Source of the DNA: a virus
Strand: one strand, 5' to 3'
IMG/VR virus record: IMGVR_UViG_3300031687_000001
Location: 1 to 64,000 of that record
Length of the DNA stretch: 64,000 nucleotides
Part shown: one piece after another, positions 47,067-58,481 of the stretch
Layout: each line of letters begins with the position of its first letter
How positions within the stretch are numbered: the first letter of the stretch is position 1
Position numbers and translations under genes: made by a program
Notes under the pieces: model-generated
What the model was told of the DNA's origin: nothing
The model's input: the letters and a program-made list of their open reading frames with translations, nothing else
The model's database searches: none

Positions 47067-47094
47067 AAAAAAAAGACCCCCGAAGGAGTCTTTT
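47067..47094 (-). terminator. Rho-independent terminator with UUCG loop
   Basis: GACUCC-UUCG-GGGGUC-U8. Confidence 0.9.
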
Positions 47095-47121: not shown

Positions 47122-49131
47122 TTACTTACTTTTCAATACATCAATTTCTGCTTTCAATTCCTTGACTGCTTCAATTAATAGTGCTACGATATTTCCGTAA
47201 GCCACCGAGTAATGATCATCTTCTGATCCAGGTGTGCTATTTGGTCCACCAGTAACTGCTTCAGGTAATACTTTTAGTACTTCCTGTGCAATAACACCGA
47301 CATGTCTGTCAGTAGGATTATGTGCGTATACAGTAGGCACTTCTTCCGGTGTTGCCGGAGTAAGGTCTGTTCTATCATACGTATAACCATTTAGTTGACA
47401 TACTTTGTCCAATGCATCTGGAATTATCTCAAGATTTTCCTTAACACGTTCGTCTGAGTATGCAGTAACGTTACCTGAAGTCCAGATACTATCACCAATT
47501 GCAGAACGAGTAGTACCAGCAGACATATATGCTGCGTGATGACCTGCGATCTTGCGTCCGTTTGCGTTTGTGTTATTAGAATGAGTCCATGCTATTCCGT
47601 AGAAATTGCCTGGCGCTACACCATTATCATCTAATGTATACGCTGCGCCCATACTATAAACTTGTTGGAATTTAGTAGCTGAATATAATCCAGTTACACC
47701 GTGTCCGTAGTTTGAACCGAATGTGATATTGTTAGATACATTACCACCACTCGTTGGCAAATATGCGTGAGTATGTGAGTTCTTAGTTGATCCTTGATTC
47801 AAGATATAAGGAGCCAATGAAGCTGGCGTCATATATCTCAAATAAGAATCATTTGATGCATATATACGAGCTGGTGCTGATGTACTTGCGCCCGATGCAG
47901 TGTTAATCCAACCGAAGTTAGCGTAACCATTGGCATCTGTGCGAACGACTTTGTTGGCAGCATTGTTAGTTGTACCATTCAATGTCAATCCATCTACTGT
48001 TCCAGCGTTCAATCCAGCAGTACCGTTACTATCAACTGTTTTAAGAGATGCTAATAATTGTGCCGAAGTTTGATCTGCTGTTGCACCTGACTCAATGCCG
48101 TTTAACTTAGTATGATCTGTTGATGTAAAGTTGATCTGTGAAAGACCACCATCGCCTACTGAATAAGTAGTGTTAGGCCAAGACCTGTCATAAGCCGCTT
48201 TAACTGCTGCTGATGATGCAGATACAGATGTGCTTGTTGATGTTACGCTATTTGAAATTGCGCGATGAGTATTGGTGTCCTGTGCATCTGCATAAACCTT
48301 TGCTGATGCCAATGCTGCGTTTGCTTTAGTAGTCGCATCTGCTGCTGCCGTAGAAGCCGCTGATGATGTAACACTTGCGATTGCTGAACTTAGTTCTGAA
48401 TCAGTTGCCATTGCATCTTGGATTTCTTTAAGCGTATTAAATGCTGCGCCTGCGCCATTAGTTACGTCTGCAACTGCACCTGCTCTTGCTGCGTTTGCTT
48501 TACTAGTTGCGTCTGCTGCTGCTGCTGAGATTGCTTGTGACTTTGCATTATTTGCTTTAGTAGTTGCATCAGAACTTGCTGCTGATTCTGCATCTGCTTC
48601 TGCTTGATCTGCATATGCCTTTGCTGATACCAATGCTGCGTTCGCTTTGGTAGTCGCATCACTTGCTGCTGCTGAGATTGCTTGTGACTTTGCATTATTT
48701 GCTTTAGTAGTTGCATCAGAACTTGCTGCTGAGATTGCTTGTGACTTTGCATTATTTGCTTTAGTAGTTGCATCAGAACTTGCTGCTGATTCTGCATCTG
48801 CTTCTGCTTGATCTGCATATGCCTTTGCTGATACCAATGCTGCGTTCGCTTTACTAGTTGCATCACTTGCTGCTGCTGCTTTTACTTCTGCTGGCGAATC
48901 AACACCTGAGCCATTATCGGTTGTCAACATGGTAGTTGCTAAGATAGAAATGTTACGTTCCATATCTGCTGCTCTACGAAGCGATGACTTGGAACCAGAC
49001 ATAGAAATCTCGTTATCACCTAATGTTCCAGTTGATTCAACTAAATCACCTGTTGGACTGTACTTATATTTTTTGTTTTTGTCTAATGACACACTTGTCA
49101 TTACACCATTCTTTTTAATTTTTCTTGACAT
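47122..49131 (-). CDS. Tail fibre paralogue D, S74 chaperone
   Basis: MSRKIKKNG N-terminus, Ala-rich repeats, TAYSDERVK. Confidence 0.88.
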   Translation of the reverse strand: MSRKIKKNGVMTSVSLDKNKKYKYSPTGDLVESTGTLGDNEISMSGSKSSLRRAADMERNISILATTMLTTDNGSGVDSPAEVKAAAASDATSKANAALVSAKAYADQAEADAESAASSDATTKANNAKSQAISAASSDATTKANNAKSQAISAAASDATTKANAALVSAKAYADQAEADAESAASSDATTKANNAKSQAISAAAADATSKANAARAGAVADVTNGAGAAFNTLKEIQDAMATDSELSSAIASVTSSAASTAAADATTKANAALASAKVYADAQDTNTHRAISNSVTSTSTSVSASSAAVKAAYDRSWPNTTYSVGDGGLSQINFTSTDHTKLNGIESGATADQTSAQLLASLKTVDSNGTAGLNAGTVDGLTLNGTTNNAANKVVRTDANGYANFGWINTASGASTSAPARIYASNDSYLRYMTPASLAPYILNQGSTKNSHTHAYLPTSGGNVSNNITFGSNYGHGVTGLYSATKFQQVYSMGAAYTLDDNGVAPGNFYGIAWTHSNNTNANGRKIAGHHAAYMSAGTTRSAIGDSIWTSGNVTAYSDERVKENLEIIPDALDKVCQLNGYTYDRTDLTPATPEEVPTVYAHNPTDRHVGVIAQEVLKVLPEAVTGGPNSTPGSEDDHYSVAYGNIVALLIEAVKELKAEIDVLKSK

Positions 49132-49154
49132 TATTTTATCTCCTTAAAGATATT

Positions 49155-49259
49155 GATTGATACGAAGAATATACTCTGTATATTCCAGTGTTTATGATAA
49201 TCATAACTTTTATGATAATCATAAACTAAGCAGGGAGTTAAACTCCCTACGTTTGATCA
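49155..49259 (-). ncRNA. Structured intergenic RNA element Y, copy 1
   Basis: Three hairpins with conserved junctions; covaries with 53452-53543. Confidence 0.7.
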
Positions 49260-49266
49260 ATTTATA

Positions 49267-51117
49267 CTACTTTTTTAATTTAGCAATTTCCGCTGCTTGA
49301 CTTTCTACCATTGATTTTAGTTCTTTTATAGACTCAATCAATAACGGAACCATACGCTCATATTGTACAGTTTTATAATCTGTACCATTGTCGCTATTAA
49401 TCGGTGCTGATTTAACAACCTCTGGCATTACTGCTTCAACTTCTTGTGCTGATACACCAACTTGCTGAACATCAGTATCATACCCAAGTTCGCCTGCTAC
49501 ATCATTACCAGTGTAATGATAGCCATTTAGTTGCGATACCTTGTCTAATGCATTCTCGATCTTACCACTAAAGTTCTTTAGACGCTCATCTGAGTAGTAT
49601 GCTGTTACTTCACCAGTTGCAGATATATTGGCAGCTCTAAAATTTTCATAGCCAGTGCCTGGATTGTTTCGTATTGTTATCGTACCGTCCGTCTCCATAG
49701 AGATATTTGATGCGACAACGCCGCCCCAATGCATACCGATTCTAGGAGCTGACATTCCAACACCCGATCCATATCCACCTTCTCTAACCTCAATTCCCGC
49801 GTCACCGTATCCAGTAGATGTTTGTGATGCTGATGCAAACTCATGGTTTCCTAAATGATTACCACCTGCTCGCAAACTTAAATGACCCGATGCAGTATCA
49901 GTAGCATCTGATCGTAGGAATTGCGAACCTTGAACTCCATCTAATAAATCAGCATCTAAGCCAGAGCCAGAACCGTCGTTTTGGTTATCCCAAATCTTGC
50001 GCCATGAACCCCAAGTACCGCTATTCATGCCACGTGACGATAATTCGCCTGTTCTAAAGTTACTGAATATCTGAGATACCCATGATGTGCTATGAGCTGC
50101 TACAAACATACCGCCATCTGAGAAACCTGCTGCGCTTGCAGCGTTGCAATAACCAATTGTGTTTGCGGTGGCGGAGTCAATTGCTAAAGCATTGCCAGTG
50201 TTGCGAGATGTAAACGTAGACCCCGCAAAGTTATAAGTCGTGTTAGGCCATGATCTATCATATGCTGCTTTAACTGCCGCTGATGATGCAGATATAGACG
50301 TGCTAGTTGATGTTACACTATTTGAAATACCACGCCATGTATTAGTATCTGTGTCATTTGCATCTGCATAAACCTTTGCTGCTGCCAATGCTGCGTTTGC
50401 TTTAGTAGTTGCATCTGCTGATGCTGTCGCCGCTGCTGATGATGTAACACTTGAGATCGCTGAACTTAGTTCCGAATCGGTTGCCATTGCATTTTGGATT
50501 TCAACTAAAGTATCAAATGCCGCCCCTGCGCCATTAGTTACTGCTGCAATTGCTGCTGTCTTTGCTGCGTTTGCTTTTGTAGTCGCATCACTTGCTGCTG
50601 CTGAAATTGCTTGTGACTTTGCATTATTTGCTTTGGTAGTCGCATCACTTGCTGCTGATGAAATTGCTTGTGACTTTGCATTATTTGCTTTGGTAGTCGC
50701 ATCACTTGCTGCTGATGAAATTGCTTGTGATTTTGCATTATTTGCTTTACTAGTTGCATCTGAACTTGCTGCTGATTCTGCATCTGCTTCTGCTTGATCT
50801 GCATATGCTTTTGCTGATACTAATGCTGCGTTTGCTTTAGTAGTTGCATCACTTGCTGCTGCTGCTTTTACTTCTGCTGGCGAATCAACACCTGCGCCGT
50901 TATCGGTTGTCAACATGGTAGTTGCTAATATGGAAATATTACGTTCCATATCTGCTGCTCTACGAAGCGATGACTTGGAACCAGACATAGAAATCTCGTT
51001 ATCGCCTAATGTTCCAGTTGATTCAACTAAATCACCTGTTGCATCATACTTATATTTTTTGTTTTTGTCTAATGACACACTTGTCATTACACCATTCTTT
51101 TTAATTTTTCTTGACAT
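49267..51117 (-). CDS. Tail fibre paralogue C, S74 chaperone
   Basis: Same N-terminus; TAYYSDERLK. Confidence 0.88.
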   Translation of the reverse strand: MSRKIKKNGVMTSVSLDKNKKYKYDATGDLVESTGTLGDNEISMSGSKSSLRRAADMERNISILATTMLTTDNGAGVDSPAEVKAAAASDATTKANAALVSAKAYADQAEADAESAASSDATSKANNAKSQAISSAASDATTKANNAKSQAISSAASDATTKANNAKSQAISAAASDATTKANAAKTAAIAAVTNGAGAAFDTLVEIQNAMATDSELSSAISSVTSSAAATASADATTKANAALAAAKVYADANDTDTNTWRGISNSVTSTSTSISASSAAVKAAYDRSWPNTTYNFAGSTFTSRNTGNALAIDSATANTIGYCNAASAAGFSDGGMFVAAHSTSWVSQIFSNFRTGELSSRGMNSGTWGSWRKIWDNQNDGSGSGLDADLLDGVQGSQFLRSDATDTASGHLSLRAGGNHLGNHEFASASQTSTGYGDAGIEVREGGYGSGVGMSAPRIGMHWGGVVASNISMETDGTITIRNNPGTGYENFRAANISATGEVTAYYSDERLKNFSGKIENALDKVSQLNGYHYTGNDVAGELGYDTDVQQVGVSAQEVEAVMPEVVKSAPINSDNGTDYKTVQYERMVPLLIESIKELKSMVESQAAEIAKLKK

Positions 51118-51144
51118 GGTTTGGAATTCCTTTATTTAACATCT

Positions 51145-51183
51145 CGTCAGATCTTACTAACGCAGTGCTTATTGGTATTTATG
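51145..51183 (-). promoter_or_regulatory. Late promoter plus leader hairpin X
   Basis: CATAAATA then CGUUAG-UAAGAU-CUGACG. Confidence 0.7.
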
Positions 51184-51231
51184 CCATATTTATGAAAGTT
51201 AACAACCTATATTCATAAATAAAATCCAAAT

Positions 51232-51256
51232 AAAAACGCCCACTGTGGGCGTTTTT
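51232..51256. terminator. Bidirectional rho-independent terminator
   Basis: AAAAACGCCCAC-T-GTGGGCGTTTTT. Confidence 0.85.
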
Positions 51257-51284
51257 CTTCTTATAGTACTAAGTACTTTATAGA

Positions 51285-53402
51285 CTAGCGATTTGCTTTT
51301 AACTCATCAATTTGAACTTGTTGTTCTTTGATTGCTTCAATAAGCAATGCAACTAGATTACCGTATGCTACAGAGTAATGATCATCTTCTGATCCTTCAT
51401 TGCTGTTAGGACCGCCAGAAACTGCTTCTGGTAGTACAGCAAGAACTTCTTGTGCTATAACGCCAACATATCTATTTTTAGGATTATGAGCGTAAATAGT
51501 ACCTTCTTCCTCTGGAGTTGCTGGTTGCTTATCAGTTCTGTCGTATGTGTAACCATTTAACTGCTTGACTTTATCAATAGCGTTAGGTATTACTTCTAGG
51601 TTGTCTTTAACCCTTGCATCTGAATATGCAATCACATCGCCAGAAGTCCAAACATTAGAACCCATAGCTGATGTTGGGCCACCATTCTGACACCAAACCA
51701 TCTGATGTCCACTAGCCAACGCACCACCAGTAGCATTGTTAGTATGCTTATAGGCTAGACCATAAAGGTTTCCGAAGTTAACTCCAGTTGCGCTAGATTT
51801 ATAAGCAGTTCCCATAGACCAGATGTGGGTAGGGTTGGTTGAGTCATAATGTCCGTAAACACCTCTGTCACGATAAGCAGTTTCGTTTACTAAGTAACCA
51901 CGTTGGTAGATAGTGTTGTTCTGATAGTCAGTTGCGTCACTACGCATATAACTAGCACCATTGACACCGTCTAATAAGTTTGCATCGGCAGCCTTGGCAG
52001 TTAAACCTAAGTAGCTATGAGTGTGTCCATCAACACTAACGCCAACAGAATCACAGTACGACTTAAATGCACCGCTAGTCATAAACCTTGTGTAGTTATC
52101 AGAAGTGGAGTTGTTTCTGAACGCAATATCCGCAGTTGTTGCTGGTGCAGTACTTTGCTCCGCATAGTTTGATCGAAATAGTCTGGCAGTTATATCCGCT
52201 GCGCTATCTCGCTCTGCTACTGTATTAGCGGTTGCTGCTGAAGTAAGAGCATGACCATCTAATCTACCAGCGTTAATACCACCAGAGCCGTCAACATCTA
52301 CTGTCTTAATAGACGCTAATAGTTGAGCTGCTGATTGATCTGCTGTTGCTCCTGATTCAATGCCGTTTAACTTGCTGTGATCAGCCGAAGTAAAGTTAAT
52401 CTGTGAAAGACCACCATCACCTACAGAATAGGTTGTGTTAGGCCAAGATCTATCGTAAGCAGCCTTTACTGCTGCTGATGATGCTGATACAGATGTGCTA
52501 GTCGATGACGTGCTATTTGAAATACCGCGCCATGTATTAGTATTGGCATCATTTGCGTCTGCATAAACTTTTGCTGCTGCTAATGCTGCGTTTGCTTTAG
52601 TAGTCGCGTCTGCTGATGCAGTTGCTGCTGCTGACGAAGTAACACTTGAGATTGCTGAACTTAGTTCTGAATCAGTTGCCATTGCATTTTGGATTTCAAC
52701 TAAAGTATCAAATGCTGCGCCTGCGCCATTAGTTACTGCTGCAATTGCTGCTGCTTGTGCTGCATTTGCTTTGGTAGTCGCATCACTTGCTGCTGCTGAG
52801 ATCGCCTGTGATTTTGCATTATTTGCTTTAGTAGTCGCATCTGATGCTGCTGCTGATTCTGCATCTGCTTCTGCTTGATCTGCATATGACTTTGCTGATG
52901 CCAATGCTGCGTTTGCTTTTGTAGTCGCATCACTTGCTGCTGCTGAGATCGCCTGTGACTTTGCATTGTTTGCTTTAGTAGTCGCATCTGAACTTGCTGC
53001 TGATTCTGCATCTGCTTCTGCTTGATCTGCATATGCTTTTGCTGATACCAATGCTGCGTTTGCTTTAGTAGTCGCATCACTTGCTGCTGCCGAGATTGCT
53101 TGTGACTTTGCATTGTTTGCTTTAGTCGTTGCATCTGTTGCTGCTGCTGCTTTTACTTCTGCTGGCGAATCTATACCTGCGCCATTATCGGTTGTCAACA
53201 TGGTAGTTGCTAAGATAGAAATGTTACGTTCCATATCTGCTGCTCTACGAAGCGATGACTTAGAACCAGATATAGAAATCTCGTTATCACCTAATTCACC
53301 AGTTGATTCAACTAAATCACCTGTTGGGCTGTACTTATATTTTTTGTTTTTGTCTAATGACACACTTGTCATTACACCATTCTTTTTAATTTTTCTTGAC
53401 AT
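51285..53402 (-). CDS. Tail fibre paralogue B, S74 chaperone
   Basis: Same N-terminus; IAYSDARVK. Confidence 0.88.
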   Translation of the reverse strand: MSRKIKKNGVMTSVSLDKNKKYKYSPTGDLVESTGELGDNEISISGSKSSLRRAADMERNISILATTMLTTDNGAGIDSPAEVKAAAATDATTKANNAKSQAISAAASDATTKANAALVSAKAYADQAEADAESAASSDATTKANNAKSQAISAAASDATTKANAALASAKSYADQAEADAESAAASDATTKANNAKSQAISAAASDATTKANAAQAAAIAAVTNGAGAAFDTLVEIQNAMATDSELSSAISSVTSSAAATASADATTKANAALAAAKVYADANDANTNTWRGISNSTSSTSTSVSASSAAVKAAYDRSWPNTTYSVGDGGLSQINFTSADHSKLNGIESGATADQSAAQLLASIKTVDVDGSGGINAGRLDGHALTSAATANTVAERDSAADITARLFRSNYAEQSTAPATTADIAFRNNSTSDNYTRFMTSGAFKSYCDSVGVSVDGHTHSYLGLTAKAADANLLDGVNGASYMRSDATDYQNNTIYQRGYLVNETAYRDRGVYGHYDSTNPTHIWSMGTAYKSSATGVNFGNLYGLAYKHTNNATGGALASGHQMVWCQNGGPTSAMGSNVWTSGDVIAYSDARVKDNLEVIPNAIDKVKQLNGYTYDRTDKQPATPEEEGTIYAHNPKNRYVGVIAQEVLAVLPEAVSGGPNSNEGSEDDHYSVAYGNLVALLIEAIKEQQVQIDELKANR

Positions 53403-53420
53403 TTTTACATCTCCTAAATG

Positions 53421-53450
53421 AAAATACCGTCAATGAATCATTGACGGTAT
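53421..53450 (-). terminator. 13-bp perfect inverted repeat, terminator/attenuator-like
   Basis: ATACCGTCAATGA-A-TCATTGACGGTAT, followed by a short U run on the minus strand. Confidence 0.5.
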
Positions 53451-53451
53451 C

Positions 53452-53543
53452 GATTGATACGAAGGATATAACTCAGTATATCCCAGTGTTTATGATTATC
53501 ATAAACTAAGTAGAGAGTTATGACAACTATCTACGTTTGATCA
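53452..53543 (-). ncRNA. Structured intergenic RNA element Y, copy 2
   Basis: See copy 1. Confidence 0.7.
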
Positions 53544-53550
53544 GTCTATA

Positions 53551-55803
53551 TTATGAACTTAATCCTGTTACTTCAATTTCGTCGTCTTCTGCAATAATAC
53601 CTTGTGAGATAGTTACAGTTGTGCCTGATACTGAATACTCGCTTGCACGTAGAAACAATCTGTTAACTAAAACAACATAATGCTTCGCACTTGACAATTC
53701 ACTAAACGTAAAGTTAGTTGTCGAAGTCGTGTTATTAGTTTCTTGTGATGCTGTAACATTCTGAACTGCACTGTGGAAGTGACTAAGTTGTGCAATTGCG
53801 CCTGCTTGTGCTGCGTTTGCTTTAGTAGTTGCATCACTCGCTGCTGCTGATTCTGCATCTGCTTCTGCTTGATCTGCATATGCTTTTGCTGATACTAATG
53901 CTGCGTTTGCTTTAGTAGTTGCATCACTCGCTGCTGCTGATTCTGCATCTGCTTCTGCTTGATCTGCATATGCTTTTGCTGATACTAATGCTGCGTTTGC
54001 TTTAGTAGTTGCATCTGTTGCTGCTGCTGATTGTGCTGCGTTAGCCTTTGAAGTAGCGTCTGCTGATGCTGTAGAAGCCGCTGATGATGTAACACTTGCG
54101 ATCGCTGAACTTAGTTCTGAATCAGTTGCCATTGCATCTTGGATTTCTTTAAGCGTATTAAATGCCGCCCCTGCGCCATTAGTTACGTCTGCAACTGCAC
54201 CTGCTCTTGCTGCGTTTGCTTTACTAGTTGCGTCTGCTGCTGCTGCTGATTGGGCTGCGTTAGCTTTAGTAGTTGCATCTGCTGATGCTGTTGCTGCACG
54301 AGTAGCGTCTTTAGATTCTGCTGCATTAATTGCTGCTAGTTCTGCTGCGTCTGCATATGAGTTTGCTGCTGATGCACGTACTACGTCTTTTGCTTCTGCT
54401 GATGCAATTGCTGCTAGTTCTGCTGCGTCTGCTTTAGTAGTCGCGTCTGCTGATGCTGTTGCTGCACGAGTAGCGTCTTTAGATTCTGCTGCATTAATTG
54501 CTGCTAGTTCTGCTGCGTCTGCTTTAGTAGTCGCGTCTGCTGATGCTGTTGCTGCTGCTGATGAAGTAACACTTGAGATTGCTGAACTTAGTTCTGCGTC
54601 GGTTGCCATTGCATTCTGAATTTCAACTAGAGTATCAAATGCTGCGCCTGCGCCATTAGTTACTGCTGCAATTGCTGCTGCTTGTGCTGCATTTGCTTTG
54701 GTAGTCGCATCACTTGCTGCTGTTGCTTCTGCTGTATCTGCGTATGATTTTGCTGATACTAATGCTGCGTCTGCTTTAGTAGTTGCATCTGTTGCTGCTG
54801 CTGATTGTGCTGCGTCTGCTTTAGTTGTTGCATCTGTTGCTGCTGCTGATTGTGCTGCGTCTGCTTTAGTTGTTGCATCTGTTGCTGCTGCTGATTGTGC
54901 TGCATCTGCTTTAGTAGTTGCATCTGTTGCTGCTGCTGATACTGCGTCTGCTTCTGCTGTGTCTACATATGATTCTTGTGCGTAACCAGTGAAGTCAACA
55001 TTGTTAGTAATTGCTGTATCTGTATAAGATGCTGCTGCTGCTATTGCTGCTGCTTCTGCTGCGTCTGCTTTAATTGTTGCGCCGTCTGCCGCTACTGAGA
55101 TGCTATTGGTGATTGTAGCAGCGAAGTTAGCATCATCGCCAAGTGCGGTAGCCAATTCGTTTAGTGTATCTAATGCGCCAGGTGCGCCGTTAATAAGACC
55201 ATTGATTGCTGCGTCTACATAAGTTTTGTTGGTTGCATGTCCATCTTCAGTTGGTGCTGCTAAGTTGATGATTTGGTTATTATCCATATCAACTTTATCG
55301 CCAAACTTAACTGCTGTTCCGTCTGCATCTGTAATTTTCTTACCAGAAGCCATTTGTAGAGTTGCTGCAACGTTAACAGTTGATGCAGATGCTAGTGTCA
55401 ATACACCAGTTCCTGTTACCTGTGTAGTCAACGATTGGTTAACATCAGCCTGAACAACGATCGTACCTGAATTAGATTCGATAACTTTCTGTCCATCAAT
55501 ATAAAGTGAACCTTCTGATAGGTAAAGGTCACGCCATTTCATTGTTGGTGAACCTAAGTCATAACCAGTAGTTCCGTCTGAATCTATTGAAGGTATGATA
55601 TGAGCAGACATAGTTAGATCACCTGTCATGGTGTCGCCTGATTTGCTTACTGATTGTGCTACTGCGCCGCCTGATGCTGATGCAATTGCTGATGCTAAGT
55701 CTTGTCCGTCTAATAAAACCGTATCAACTGTTAAATTACCAGTGATTACTGAATCTGCATTAGTTTCAAAACCTGCATCTATTAAAAATCTTTTTTGTGC
55801 CAT
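53551..55803 (-). CDS. Ala-rich fibre/adaptor protein without S74 chaperone
   Basis: APGALDTLNELATAL motif; 15-aa tandem repeats; small beta C-terminal domain. Confidence 0.75.
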   Translation of the reverse strand: MAQKRFLIDAGFETNADSVITGNLTVDTVLLDGQDLASAIASASGGAVAQSVSKSGDTMTGDLTMSAHIIPSIDSDGTTGYDLGSPTMKWRDLYLSEGSLYIDGQKVIESNSGTIVVQADVNQSLTTQVTGTGVLTLASASTVNVAATLQMASGKKITDADGTAVKFGDKVDMDNNQIINLAAPTEDGHATNKTYVDAAINGLINGAPGALDTLNELATALGDDANFAATITNSISVAADGATIKADAAEAAAIAAAASYTDTAITNNVDFTGYAQESYVDTAEADAVSAAATDATTKADAAQSAAATDATTKADAAQSAAATDATTKADAAQSAAATDATTKADAALVSAKSYADTAEATAASDATTKANAAQAAAIAAVTNGAGAAFDTLVEIQNAMATDAELSSAISSVTSSAAATASADATTKADAAELAAINAAESKDATRAATASADATTKADAAELAAIASAEAKDVVRASAANSYADAAELAAINAAESKDATRAATASADATTKANAAQSAAAADATSKANAARAGAVADVTNGAGAAFNTLKEIQDAMATDSELSSAIASVTSSAASTASADATSKANAAQSAAATDATTKANAALVSAKAYADQAEADAESAAASDATTKANAALVSAKAYADQAEADAESAAASDATTKANAAQAGAIAQLSHFHSAVQNVTASQETNNTTSTTNFTFSELSSAKHYVVLVNRLFLRASEYSVSGTTVTISQGIIAEDDEIEVTGLSS

Positions 55804-55832
55804 TATATTATGTTTCCTTTTTCGCGAAAAAA

Positions 55833-55865
55833 ACGTTAGATCTTACTAACGTAATGGTATTTATG
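55833..55865 (-). promoter_or_regulatory. Late promoter plus leader hairpin X
   Basis: CATAAATA then ACGUUAG-UAAGAU-CUAACGU. Confidence 0.7.
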
Positions 55866-55893
55866 CATTATTTATATATGTTAACAACTTAGT

Positions 55894-56417
55894 TTAAGTT
55901 GAAATCTGTGCTGTGGTGGTTTGATTCTGGTAGCCTGAAGTGTCTACCCAAGAGGTTACATAATCAGACACTCTTAACCAGTATACATTGGTTCCAGACC
56001 CTATCTGATAAGCGTAAGAACCTCTTTGATAGAGACGAGTTCCTATCGTATGTGAGTAAACTCTTAAAGAACCTGAAACGTTATTTCTGTGGTAACTAAC
56101 GTTTGCAACTCCAGGATAGTCCCATATGGCAAAAGAATACATATCCTTAGCCCACGTCCAGTAACCTTGTGTATATGGGTTTGTATACGCAAGCTCTTGG
56201 AAAGTGGACTCATTATGCCCACTACTAACCCAAACGCTTGTAGTCACCTGATTACTCTTGCCGTGGAAATTATTGAATCTAATAGAACCAGATGATGGTA
56301 TACCTGAGACACCTTTACCTGCTAAGGCATGGTACTCAGATAACGAGTGGGAACCTACGCCTCCAAAGTGAGCAGCAATCTGTAGAATCTAATTTCTCCA
56401 GAGGTTTGTAAAGCCAT
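55894..56417 (-). pseudogene. Frameshifted fibre-tip/adhesin-like gene (~174 aa if repaired)
   Basis: TAATG-coupled MALQTSGEIRF, 2 extra nt, then QIAAHFGGVGSHSLSEYH... in the frame of ORF 55894-56247. Confidence 0.75.
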
Positions 56418-58312
56418 TACGCACCTCCTACTAGAGCCTTGAGTTCATCTATCTGAACTTGCTGTTCATCTATCTGAGTCTGTTGTTCTTTAATAGATTC
56501 GATGAGTAGAGGTACAAGTTTGTCGTATTGGACGGTCTTATACCCTTCACCAATAGCTGCATCCACTACGATCTCTGGTAACACCGCTTCAACTTCTTGG
56601 GCTGATACACCTACCTGACGCTCTTCAGTGTCGTAACCGAACGTTGCTGCTACATCGTTTCCTTTGTAGTAGTAACCGTTAAGTTGCTTAACCTTATCTA
56701 GGGCGTTAGGTATAGTTCCCTCAAAGTCCTTTAGGCGTTCATCTGAGTAATACGCAGTAACGTTACCTGTAAACAAGCCAGTTCCAGCAACATGAAAGCT
56801 CATTGAGGCTTCCGTACCGTATACCTTGAATGCATTACCAGATCCGTAACTACTGCCGTCTGAGTGAACGTATGCTATAGTTCCGTTCTGGCCTTCTGCT
56901 GGTATATTATCGGAGAAGTTTATTAAGCAAGGGCCAGCGTTAGATGTAGCTCGTAGGTTTATAACACCCGTATCACTACGGAAGTAACTTGAACCATGAA
57001 CTCCATCTAATAAATCAGCATCTAAGCCAGAGCCAGAACCGTCGTTATCGGGGTGCCAGTATTCAGCACCACCAGTGTATTTGTAGACCCCGCCATTAAT
57101 ATGAACGCTTTTGTTCATGTAGAACAGGCCACGGTCAGTTTGTATATGCCCCCAAGAGGAATTTCCAGGACCAAGGGTGATATTACCGTGTGGGGTAGTG
57201 AAAGTATGTGCAGATGAGGAAGTGGTAAAGTACCCCGGACTATTGACTGTTCCAGTAAGTGTTGGGCTAGCCTTTGGTGCTAGTGCTGACAAATCTTGAT
57301 CTGCTGTAGCTCCTGTCTCTATACCATTTAACTTAGTATGATCAGCAGATGTAAAGTTGATCTGCGTTAAGCCTCCGTCACCCACAGAGTAAGTGGTGTT
57401 GGTATCAGGCCAAGACCGATCATAAGCTGCTTTCACAGCGGCAGATGATGCAGATATAGACGTGCTAGTTGATGTTACACTATTTGAAATACCACGCCAT
57501 GTATTAGTATTTGCGTCATTTGCATCTGCGTATACTTTAGCTGCTGCCAATGCTGCGTTTGCTTTAGAAGTTGCATCTGCCGATGCTGTTGCCGCTGCTG
57601 ATGATGTAACACTTGAGATCGCTGAACTTAGTTCCGAATCGGTTGCCATTGCATTCTGAATTTCAACTAAAGTATCAAATGCTGCGCCTGCGCCATTAGT
57701 TACTGCTGCAATTGCTGCTGTCTTTGCTGCGTTTGCTTTAGTAGTCGCATCACTCGCTGCTGCTGAAATTGCTTGTGATTTTGCATTATTTGCTTTAGTA
57801 GTCGCATCTGATGCTGCTGCTGATTCTGCATCTGCTTCTGCTTGATCTGCATATGCTTTTGCTGATACCAATGCTGCGTTTGCTTTAGTAGTCGCATCAC
57901 TTGCTGCTGATGAAATTGCTTGTGATTTTGCATTATTTGCTTTACTAGTCGCATCTGAACTTGCTGCTGATTCTGCATCTGCTTCTGCTTGATCTGCATA
58001 TGCTTTTGCTGATACCAATGCATTATTTGCTTTAGTCGTTGCATCTGTTGCTGCTGCTGCTTTTACTTCTGCTGGCGAATCTATACCTGCGCCATTATCG
58101 GTTGTCAACATCGTAGTCGCTAAGATAGAAATGTTACGTTCCATATCTGCTGCTCTACGAAGCGATGACTTAGACCCAGATATAGAAATCTCGTTATCGC
58201 CTAATGTTCCAGTTGATTCAACTAAATCACCTGTTGCATCGTACTTATATTTTTTGTTCTTATCTAATGACACACTTGTCATTACACCATTCTTTTTAAT
58301 TTTTCTTGACAT
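56417..58312 (-). CDS. Tail fibre paralogue A, S74 chaperone
   Basis: Same N-terminus; TAYYSDERLK. Confidence 0.88.
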   Translation of the reverse strand: MSRKIKKNGVMTSVSLDKNKKYKYDATGDLVESTGTLGDNEISISGSKSSLRRAADMERNISILATTMLTTDNGAGIDSPAEVKAAAATDATTKANNALVSAKAYADQAEADAESAASSDATSKANNAKSQAISSAASDATTKANAALVSAKAYADQAEADAESAAASDATTKANNAKSQAISAAASDATTKANAAKTAAIAAVTNGAGAAFDTLVEIQNAMATDSELSSAISSVTSSAAATASADATSKANAALAAAKVYADANDANTNTWRGISNSVTSTSTSISASSAAVKAAYDRSWPDTNTTYSVGDGGLTQINFTSADHTKLNGIETGATADQDLSALAPKASPTLTGTVNSPGYFTTSSSAHTFTTPHGNITLGPGNSSWGHIQTDRGLFYMNKSVHINGGVYKYTGGAEYWHPDNDGSGSGLDADLLDGVHGSSYFRSDTGVINLRATSNAGPCLINFSDNIPAEGQNGTIAYVHSDGSSYGSGNAFKVYGTEASMSFHVAGTGLFTGNVTAYYSDERLKDFEGTIPNALDKVKQLNGYYYKGNDVAATFGYDTEERQVGVSAQEVEAVLPEIVVDAAIGEGYKTVQYDKLVPLLIESIKEQQTQIDEQQVQIDELKALVGGA

Positions 58313-58337
58313 ATTGAAATTCCTTTGTTTAACAACT

Positions 58338-58376
58338 CGCTAGATCTTACTAACATTTGTAGTAGTAGTATTTATA
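58338..58376 (-). promoter_or_regulatory. Late promoter plus leader hairpin X
   Basis: TATAAATA then UGUUAG-UAAGAU-CUAGCG. Confidence 0.7.
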
Positions 58377-58423
58377 CCATGTTAATTGTTATTTACAAAT
58401 AAAATTTACAAATAAAAACGCCC

Positions 58424-58442
58424 ACGTTATGCGGGCGTTTTT
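58424..58442. terminator. Bidirectional rho-independent terminator
   Basis: AAAAACGCCCAC-GTTAT-GCGGGCGTTTTT, closely similar to 51232. Confidence 0.8.
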
Positions 58443-58481
58443 CTTCTTTCAGTCGTAGTATTTAAACTACTACATTAACGA

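Follow-up and report, generated by a model that had tools for sequence, protein, structure and literature searches.

A probable four-way-junction RNA family located between fibre genes of uncultured marine jumbo myoviruses

In T7-type phages, structured intercistronic processing sites are well known, and T4 genes 32 and 43 provide precedents for autogenous control. Phage and marine metagenome DNA also often holds small ribozymes and orphan aptamers. In the caulimovirus 35S leader, where ribosomes are shunted, the stop codon of an open reading frame (ORF) located upstream lies 5–10 nt before a stable structure, and reinitiation takes place just past that structure. Translational coupling by RNA structure has been described for MS2 coat-lysis/replicase, Escherichia coli rpmI-rplT and f1 gene VII-IX, and the classical coupling arrangement is an overlap of the upstream stop codon with the downstream Shine-Dalgarno (SD) sequence (PMC12548453). 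In T4-like phages, repeated intergenic cassettes mediate module shuffling, and PeSLs are composites of a promoter and a terminator that occur in many copies per genome at module borders (PMC4122927). Here we consider element Y, which is found twice on the minus strand of a 64,000-nt stretch of viral DNA (the window), each time between two fibre genes. The window comprises positions 1–64,000 of the 148.9-kb IMG/VR record IMGVR_UViG_3300031687_000001. Y is very probably a family of folded sense-strand RNAs with a four-way junction, absent from Rfam 15.

In terms of gene context, Y is apparently a position-locked element, normally single-copy, between two fibre genes of uncultured marine jumbo myoviruses. 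No family in Rfam 15 represents it and no cultured phage in the collection searched has the flanking protein domains; no description of it was found in the literature searched.

Fold, covariation and strand of element Y

Both copies have the layout of stems and short junctions that the original prediction, made from the letters of the window alone, had placed at 49155–49259 and 53452–53543 on the minus strand. The suggestion that UGAU/AUCA could close a four-way junction is borne out by stem P1, which has 6 bp (AUUGAU/AUCAAU) and starts 5 nt past the stop codon; in copy 2 one of its pairs is a C-A mismatch. The UGAUCAAAC arm does begin exactly 7 nt past the upstream stop in both copies (TAG at 49267–49269, ending a 616-aa gene, and TAA at 53551–53553, ending a 750-aa gene), the C-termini of these two upstream genes are unrelated as had been noted, and a fibre gene lies downstream of both copies. 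The two downstream genes, of 669 and 705 aa, are mutual closest paralogues with 64% identity over their full length. The middle stem is longer in copy 1, as claimed, but through tandem duplication of an 18-nt palindromic unit. Of the compensation described for stem 1, the G-C to A-U change stands, whereas copy 2 also has one uncompensated U-C mismatch. Taken by themselves, the invariant junctions that had been offered as evidence prove nothing for a single genome: identity is 90% between the copies and 94–99% in the adjoining coding DNA (first 270 nt), so that the likeness between copies is what duplication would give. Constraint is shown instead by the relatives.

The relatives differ too much in sequence to be reached by exact patterns, and neither of two core patterns had a match in IMG/VR. 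Searches of cultured phages with megablast and blastn gave chance matches only, tblastn of the fibre anchor and of the C-terminus of the 750-aa protein had no match in that collection, and PDB sequence searches with the two proteins returned nothing useful. Relatives were reached by protein-guided search, through IMG/VR contigs encoding the fibre anchor and through marine metagenome loci encoding the conserved C-terminal domain, of which a scan with a 7-sequence alignment of that domain gave 77. In the anchor-encoding contigs, a gene ending ...DDE(I/L)EVTG.. lies just upstream, and the spacer between the two genes has the four-helix layout with other helix sequences. The first covariance model (CM), R1, was made from the two window copies and their flanks and was superseded by R2, made from 12 IMG/VR-derived spacers trimmed from P1 to P1, and by R3, a refined model. 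R2 matches further IMG/VR loci and 52 of the 77 marine loci, R3 matches 12 more of the 77, a variant with a longer gap past the stop, and four further divergent members were recognised by eye and by folding; eight relatives are without the element. In all, IMG/VR and marine metagenome contigs yield about 50 distinct versions, whose flanking proteins are only 40–70% identical. Exactly one copy is present in each of four large relatives, among them a 342-kb one that is 92% complete. Weak CM matches in loci L082, L110/L232, L185, L294 and L177 (minus strand) lie in other contexts and were rejected as members; each is a G+C hairpin with a T run, located by ORFs of unrelated kinds.

Family members are 81–106 nt long and consist of the 6-bp closing stem P1 and hairpins P2–P4. 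P2 is a hairpin of 9–10 bp with a loop that often reads ..GACA, and its G-rich strand is invariably the 5' strand. P4 is a hairpin of 7–8 bp with a loop near ACAGAGU. P3 forms a hairpin in every member and is hypervariable, without conserved sequence or length; its loop is of the GNRA type in several members. About 15 conserved nucleotides lie in the junction strands: YAAN in J12, UUA or CUA in J23, CANUG in J34 and YYCGN in J41, in which CG is nearly invariant. In a subfamily of marine metagenome loci (L266, L268, L275, L283 and L290, at about 1429–1470), a small additional hairpin, UCAAAUAAUUGAUUGA, and an A-rich spacer separate the stop codon from P1, and the P4 loop is different as well.

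Covariation does not fade in the larger alignment. Among 44 distinct CM-aligned sequences, 27 of the 27 modelled pairs have changed on both sides, that is, with double compensatory substitutions. Standard pairing is found in 91% of cells, compared with 42–50% when the 3' partners are slid by 1–3 columns, and the covariation score is 0.63 versus 0.09–0.15 in the slid controls. P1 is paired in 95% of cells and six of its six pairs covary, with variants that include UUGAU/AUCAA, UAGUC/GGCUA, UUGGC/GCCAA, CUAG/CUAG and UUAAU/AUUAA. An earlier set of 29 sequences gave the same picture. As CM-made alignments lean towards the model structure, MAFFT and RNAalifold were also applied independently to 25 sequences; P1, P2 and the lower part of P4 emerge again, and 17 of their 18 pairs are compensated. 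G-U or U-G occupies 53 of the paired cells and A-C or C-A only 11, a ratio of about five to one, which therefore points to the sense-strand RNA, and not the antisense strand or a DNA cruciform, as the folded molecule. The proposal of a novel structured, cis-acting RNA thus agrees with the family alignments as well as with the Rfam searches.

A cmscan of the whole window against 4227 Rfam 15 models gave no match at gathering score. At E values up to 10, only sub-threshold chance matches appear around copy 1 (the best, sraA, is on the opposite strand with 29 versus 56 bits), and Rfam finds nothing at Y in six relatives. A hammerhead core was correctly said to be absent: Y contains no CUGANGA...GAAA, and the hammerhead model, like those of the twister-sister, hatchet, pistol and hairpin ribozymes, has no match at E values up to 10. 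ARAGORN detects no tRNA or tmRNA in the window. A tRNA is a cloverleaf with a 7-bp acceptor stem, junction strands of 2/1/4–5/0 nt and a T-loop, whereas Y has a P1 of 6 bp, junction strands of 4–5/3/4/5 nt and a P2 of 9–10 bp. Y does not contain an intrinsic terminator either, for which a U run would have to come directly after a G+C-rich hairpin: across the family, UUA, CUA or CUG leads from P2 into P3, and a terminator scan flags P2 of copy 1 solely through the AT-rich start of P3. Nor is Y a PeSL-type cassette, having neither a late-promoter motif nor a family-wide terminator and being present once per large relative and twice here. A diversity-generating retroelement would need a reverse transcriptase and a template repeat in the genome, and the 148.9-kb record, estimated by CheckV to be about 40% complete, gave no RVT_1 match.

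Position of Y and its possible action on the distal fibre gene

The setting of Y is conserved along with its fold. The upstream gene is of the 750-aa type (C-terminus ...DDE(I/L)EVTG..) in every checked instance except copy 1 of the window, where it is a 616-aa paralogue, and the downstream gene always opens with a basic anchor, MSRK.., MGRK.. or MARK... The upstream stop codon is UAA in 48 of 49 distinct versions, and P1 follows it after 4–6 nt in 37 of the 49 and after 0–8 nt in 42. On the other side, the SD lies about 10–15 nt past P1, and the distance from P1 to AUG is 18–31 nt in 46 of 48 versions. AU-rich unpaired flanks are conserved on both sides of Y; the 5' flank UAAUAUA itself varies among relatives. 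The eight relatives without Y join the same two genes by a stop codon that overlaps or abuts the SD, for example AGGAGATAAaacATG and TAGGAGTAGA..ATG.

From this arrangement, we suggest with moderate confidence that Y works in cis on the fibre gene that follows it, most probably at the initiation of translation. The use of stop/SD overlap in relatives without Y points to translation as the target. A ribosome covers roughly 9–12 nt beyond the A-site codon, so with the stop codon 4–6 nt before P1, termination should open this stem. In addition, the 5–6 nt directly past P1 pair with the segment just past the SD core to give a fifth stem, P5, in which both strands covary (AACUC/GAGUU, AAAUCU/AGAUUU, UAUCU/AGAUA, AGCUC/GAGCU, CACU/AGUG and AAAACU/AGUUUU). 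Native P5 pairings exceed those in permuted (p about 0.007) and letter-shuffled (p < 5e-5) sequences. In the mechanism that we envisage, a closed P1 would place the stop codon beside the SD, and P5, which could stack on P1, would hold the SD in a weak hairpin; a ribosome terminating on the upstream fibre gene would open P1, and the output of the distal fibre could thereby depend on translation of the upstream fibre gene, or be adjusted relative to it. As tail fibres decide host range and fibre segments are needed in matched amounts, such an arrangement would be of some consequence. It is improbable, although worth stating, that Y is the bacterial-virus counterpart of a ribosome shunt, in which the ribosome would be handed across about 90 nt from the upstream stop to the next SD. 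If true, a shunt would fix the ratio of the two fibre segments through a mode of termination and reinitiation not described in bacteria.

Several observations weigh against control of translation initiation. P5 has only 4–6 AU-rich pairs and is missing or reduced to 2–3 bp in about a third of tail classes. The downstream SD is strong and normally spaced, so independent initiation is possible. The approximately 15 conserved junction nucleotides, the conserved P4 loop and the G-rich P2 strand that is never flipped suggest a specific partner or chemistry that would be superfluous for plain coupling. Proximity to the stop codon is not universal, with gaps of 16–33 nt in seven members that represent one variant, and the closeness of P1 to the stop may reflect only the compact spacers of phages. 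Finally, the model does not explain the terminator-like hairpin of copy 2, which lies between Y and the SD where others have P5.

Other ways in which Y might engage the ribosome or its own flanks were considered and rejected. Pairing with the 5' end of 16S rRNA is not borne out by the family; the UGAUCAAAC arm overlaps the 5' strand of P1 and J12, and since P1 covaries (UAGUC, UGGC, CUAG, UUAAU) the invariant 16S rRNA cannot be the partner. Stop-codon readthrough fails as well, the frame closing again after 7 codons. For bypassing of the T4 gene-60 type, the UCA take-off and landing codons match only in the clade ending ..SS and not in those ending AGC, GCG, GCA or AAG. In some subfamilies a pseudoknot (GAGU/ACUC) would suit the P4 loop and the 3' tail, but this tail has a better and covarying partner in the segment past the SD, and members of the L300 and L263 types have another P4 loop.

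Among the rival explanations, an RNA processing or stability element is unlikely but has some appeal. A nuclease of host or phage would cut the single-stranded AU-rich flanks (UAAUAUA before P1, AAAACU after it), and the junction would then protect the upstream 3' end or the downstream 5' end, such that the two cistrons differ in lifetime. The intercistronic location in a polycistronic late messenger RNA (mRNA), the compact stable fold and the retention of AU-rich unpaired flanks on both sides are all in keeping with this idea, but arms of 6–10 bp are too short for a classical RNase III substrate, the negative ARAGORN result and the junction-strand lengths given above leave no tRNA-like geometry for RNase P, and the conserved junction nucleotides would go unexplained. 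Those nucleotides, together with the P4 loop ACAGAGU, the P2 loop ..GACA and the asymmetric G-rich P2, exceed what pairing requires and could be better understood if Y were a translational operator, on whose junction a phage protein would repress or activate the adjacent SD. The binder might be a dedicated regulator, the upstream fibre protein or the distal fibre before assembly, which would contact Y by its basic N-terminus MSRKIKK. Control would then be autogenous, as for T4 genes 32 and 43. Y accompanies the downstream gene in the duplication within the window, and the N-terminus of that gene's product is conserved and basic. However, relative L274 has the same basic N-terminus and no Y, and the N-terminus is more simply viewed as an anchor to the partner fibre, which leaves an operator doubtful. 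The concentration of about 15 conserved unpaired nucleotides at a multihelix junction would also suit the core of a new self-cleaving ribozyme or small-ligand riboswitch, and an expression region directly 3' of P1 is what translational riboswitches have. We regard this possibility as quite remote, given that the models for hammerhead, twister, twister-sister, pistol, hatchet and HDV and all riboswitch models find no match at E values up to 10, that no mutually exclusive pairing of P1 and the SD region was found (P1 and P5 are compatible neighbours), and that a ligand-regulated fibre gene has no obvious logic.

A role at the level of DNA, either as a sigma-70 promoter that serves the two downstream fibres and is controlled by a Fur box or as a cassette for recombination of fibre modules like the PeSLs, is highly improbable. 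The P3 palindrome TTATGATAATCATAA (49190–49226 and 53488–53506) in both window copies agrees at 15 of 19 positions with the E. coli Fur consensus, which we take to be a 19-bp palindrome near GATAATGATAATCATTATC. Copy 1 contains the palindrome twice, and the one in copy 2 is overlapped by a promoter-like site (TTGTCA-17-TATGAT) that matches at 10 of 12 positions. P3 is hypervariable, though, with nearest relatives that keep the hairpin but have other half-site spacings (TGATTAAATCA, TGTTAACA) and with unrelated arms in distant members, so the Fur-box likeness seems limited to the window copies and is at best a lineage-specific overlay. Promoter-like matches in the region number 25, against 30 in shuffles, and thus show no excess. 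T4-like phages do shuffle modules by way of repeated intergenic cassettes, but the presence of one copy in each of the four large relatives means that Y is not a repeat-mediated cassette in general, and long-range covariation of P1 with a G-U excess on one strand are signatures of RNA. That Y is a functionless spacer with chance palindromes, copied in a recent fibre duplication, would fit the window copies taken by themselves, which are no better conserved than their flanking coding DNA; this idea is contradicted by a fold kept through dozens of compensatory changes in about 50 versions, and its probability is close to nil.

The two window copies and their fibre cluster

The record has two copies of Y, both inside the window (Table 1). 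Compared with dinucleotide shuffles, their folding energies have z-scores of −7.8 (copy 1) and −3.1 (copy 2). In copy 1, the P2 loop is mostly lost and P3 is doubled; its SD, AAGGAG (49140–49145), sits in the loop and 3' arm of P5, and 24 nt separate the end of Y from the downstream ATG. In copy 2, the terminator-like hairpin past Y accounts for a P1-to-AUG distance of 50 nt. The similarity of the two loci starts at the stop codon, and it appears that the second copy arose with duplication of a Y-plus-fibre module, placed behind another fibre gene. Y would thus move together with its fibre gene.

Table 1. Coordinates of Y, its parts and neighbouring features in the window
Feature	Coordinates	Strand	Basis or remark
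Y copy 1, whole four-way junction	49156..49261	minus	folding, R2 77.1 bits, family alignment A8
Copy 1 P1	49256-49261 with 49156-49161	minus	
Copy 1 J12	49251-49255	minus	
Copy 1 P2	49230-49250	minus	
Copy 1 J23	49227-49229	minus	
Copy 1 P3	49190-49226	minus	18-nt palindromic unit, tandem duplicate
Copy 1 J34	49186-49189	minus	
Copy 1 P4	49167-49185	minus	
Copy 1 J41	49162-49166	minus	
Copy 1 P5, weak hairpin directly 3' of P1	49137..49152	minus	UAUCU/AGAUA
Y copy 2, whole four-way junction	53453..53545	minus	folding, R2 71.1 bits, family alignment A8
Copy 2 P1	53540-53545 with 53453-53458	minus	
Copy 2 J12	53535-53539	minus	CAAAC
Copy 2 P2	53510-53534	minus	
Copy 2 J23	53507-53509	minus	UUA
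Copy 2 P3	53488-53506	minus	
Copy 2 J34	53484-53487	minus	ACUG
Copy 2 P4	53464-53483	minus	
Copy 2 J41	53459-53463	minus	UUCGU
Extra 13-bp hairpin, then UUUUCAUUU	53423..53451	minus	between copy 2 and SD (53411-53415)
750-aa fibre-type gene	53551..55803	minus	upstream of copy 2
705-aa distal fibre gene	51285..53402	minus	downstream of copy 2; MSRKIKKNG.. anchor, C-terminal Peptidase_S74 chaperone
616-aa fibre paralogue	49267..51117	minus	upstream of copy 1
669-aa distal fibre gene	47122..49131	minus	downstream of copy 1
ATAAATAC late-promoter-type motif	55857..55864	minus	upstream of 750-aa gene; predicted start of operon 750-Y2-705
ATAAATAC late-promoter-type motif	51175..51182	minus	upstream of 616-aa gene; predicted start of operon 616-Y1-669
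Intrinsic-terminator-like hairpin and T run	51232..51256	minus	past 705-aa gene; predicted end of first bicistronic unit
Intrinsic-terminator-like hairpin and T run	47071..47094	minus	past 669-aa gene; predicted end of second bicistronic unit

The window comes from an uncultured myovirus whose tail sheath is 42% identical to that of PA5oct-group jumbo phages. The last 80 residues of the 750-aa protein (..FHS..LNR..LRP.EYSVSG..DDEIEVTGLSS) are the conserved domain that precedes Y in relatives. The minus strand encodes four fibre paralogues, of 631, 705, 616 and 669 aa, with a common N-terminal anchor (about 340 residues, 80–88% identity) and differing tips that end in a Peptidase_S74 chaperone.

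Motifs in the cluster point to two bicistronic late units, 750-Y2-705 and 616-Y1-669, with both cistrons of each on one predicted transcript. Late promoters were sought as TATAAATA-type motifs, the T4 type (here NATAAATAC), upstream of genes. The ATAAATAC motif occurs 13 times in the window, where 4.9 are expected, including upstream of the 631-, 750-, 616- and 1315-aa genes; none of the 13 sites is in either Y spacer. A terminator, a ATAAATAC motif and a small leader hairpin stand before each of the 631-, 750- and 616-aa genes; the 705- and 669-aa genes lack all three and have Y instead. This is the layout expected of coupled genes, with late-promoter motifs only before the first gene of each pair and terminator-like sites only after the second.

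Other features of the cluster were noted in passing. The leader hairpins (51140–51170, 55833–55852 and 58335–58365, minus strand), just 3' of ATAAATAC, have 6 bp (CGUUAG-UAAGAU-CUAACG); in the three fibre genes the UAAGAU loop is invariant and the stem varies by G-U wobbles. The spacer with terminator, late promoter and leader is duplicated whole at 58313–58481 and 51118–51284 (minus strand; GAAGAAAAACGCCC...GGGCGTTTTTATTTG...) and resembles PeSLs, although its promoter is of the late type (PMC4122927). [quoted passage not shown] Across 47122–58312, the four fibre paralogues are 90–99% identical over their first 270 nt (third codon positions, 84–93%) and much more diverged in their tips, which suggests ongoing gene conversion of the shared anchor. 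The 750-aa gene contains an identical 26-nt segment at 54284–54309 and 54452–54477, 168 nt apart, a repeat that points to internal tandem repeats in its shaft.

Comparison with known systems

Y was reached by comparative analysis of marine phage DNA, as were the orphan Rfam motifs manA, wcaG and PhotoRC-II, and it has the multistem junction and conserved unpaired nucleotides seen both in these motifs and in four-way-junction ribozymes (twister-sister, hairpin), but it matches none of these families even at E values up to 10. With the RNase III sites of T7-type phages it has in common a folded element that lies between a stop codon and the following ribosome-binding site in a polycistronic phage mRNA. 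An RNase III site, however, consists of one irregular hairpin about two helical turns long, whereas the arms of Y have 6–10 bp and surround a conserved junction. The operators of T4 (the gene 32 leader pseudoknot, the gene 43 hairpin and RegA sites) likewise represent structured mRNA by a ribosome-binding site of a T4-type myovirus, with a role in setting protein output as proposed for Y, but they take the form of a pseudoknot, of one hairpin or of AU-rich stretches that lack structure, their protein partners being known, and Y is an intercistronic four-way junction. The short distance from stop codon to structure recalls the caulimovirus 35S shunt, by analogy only, as that system is eukaryotic and has another initiation mechanism.

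The closest parallels are with translational coupling by RNA structure, in which, as proposed for Y, two cistrons are cotranscribed, the downstream SD sits in a hairpin and the upstream stop lies at the foot of a structure that ribosomes can open (PMC12548453); the plain stop/SD overlap of the relatives without Y adds to this likeness. What sets Y apart is that an autonomous, conserved four-way junction of 81–106 nt stands between stop and SD, that the linear spacing of about 110–150 nt is far past the usual efficient range, and that the SD hairpin is weak. Relatives with Y and relatives with stop/SD overlap thus offer a natural comparison for how phages set subunit ratios, and Y itself, at less than 110 nt, is a compact RNA in which long-range coupling, RNA-protein operators or new catalytic RNAs could be studied.

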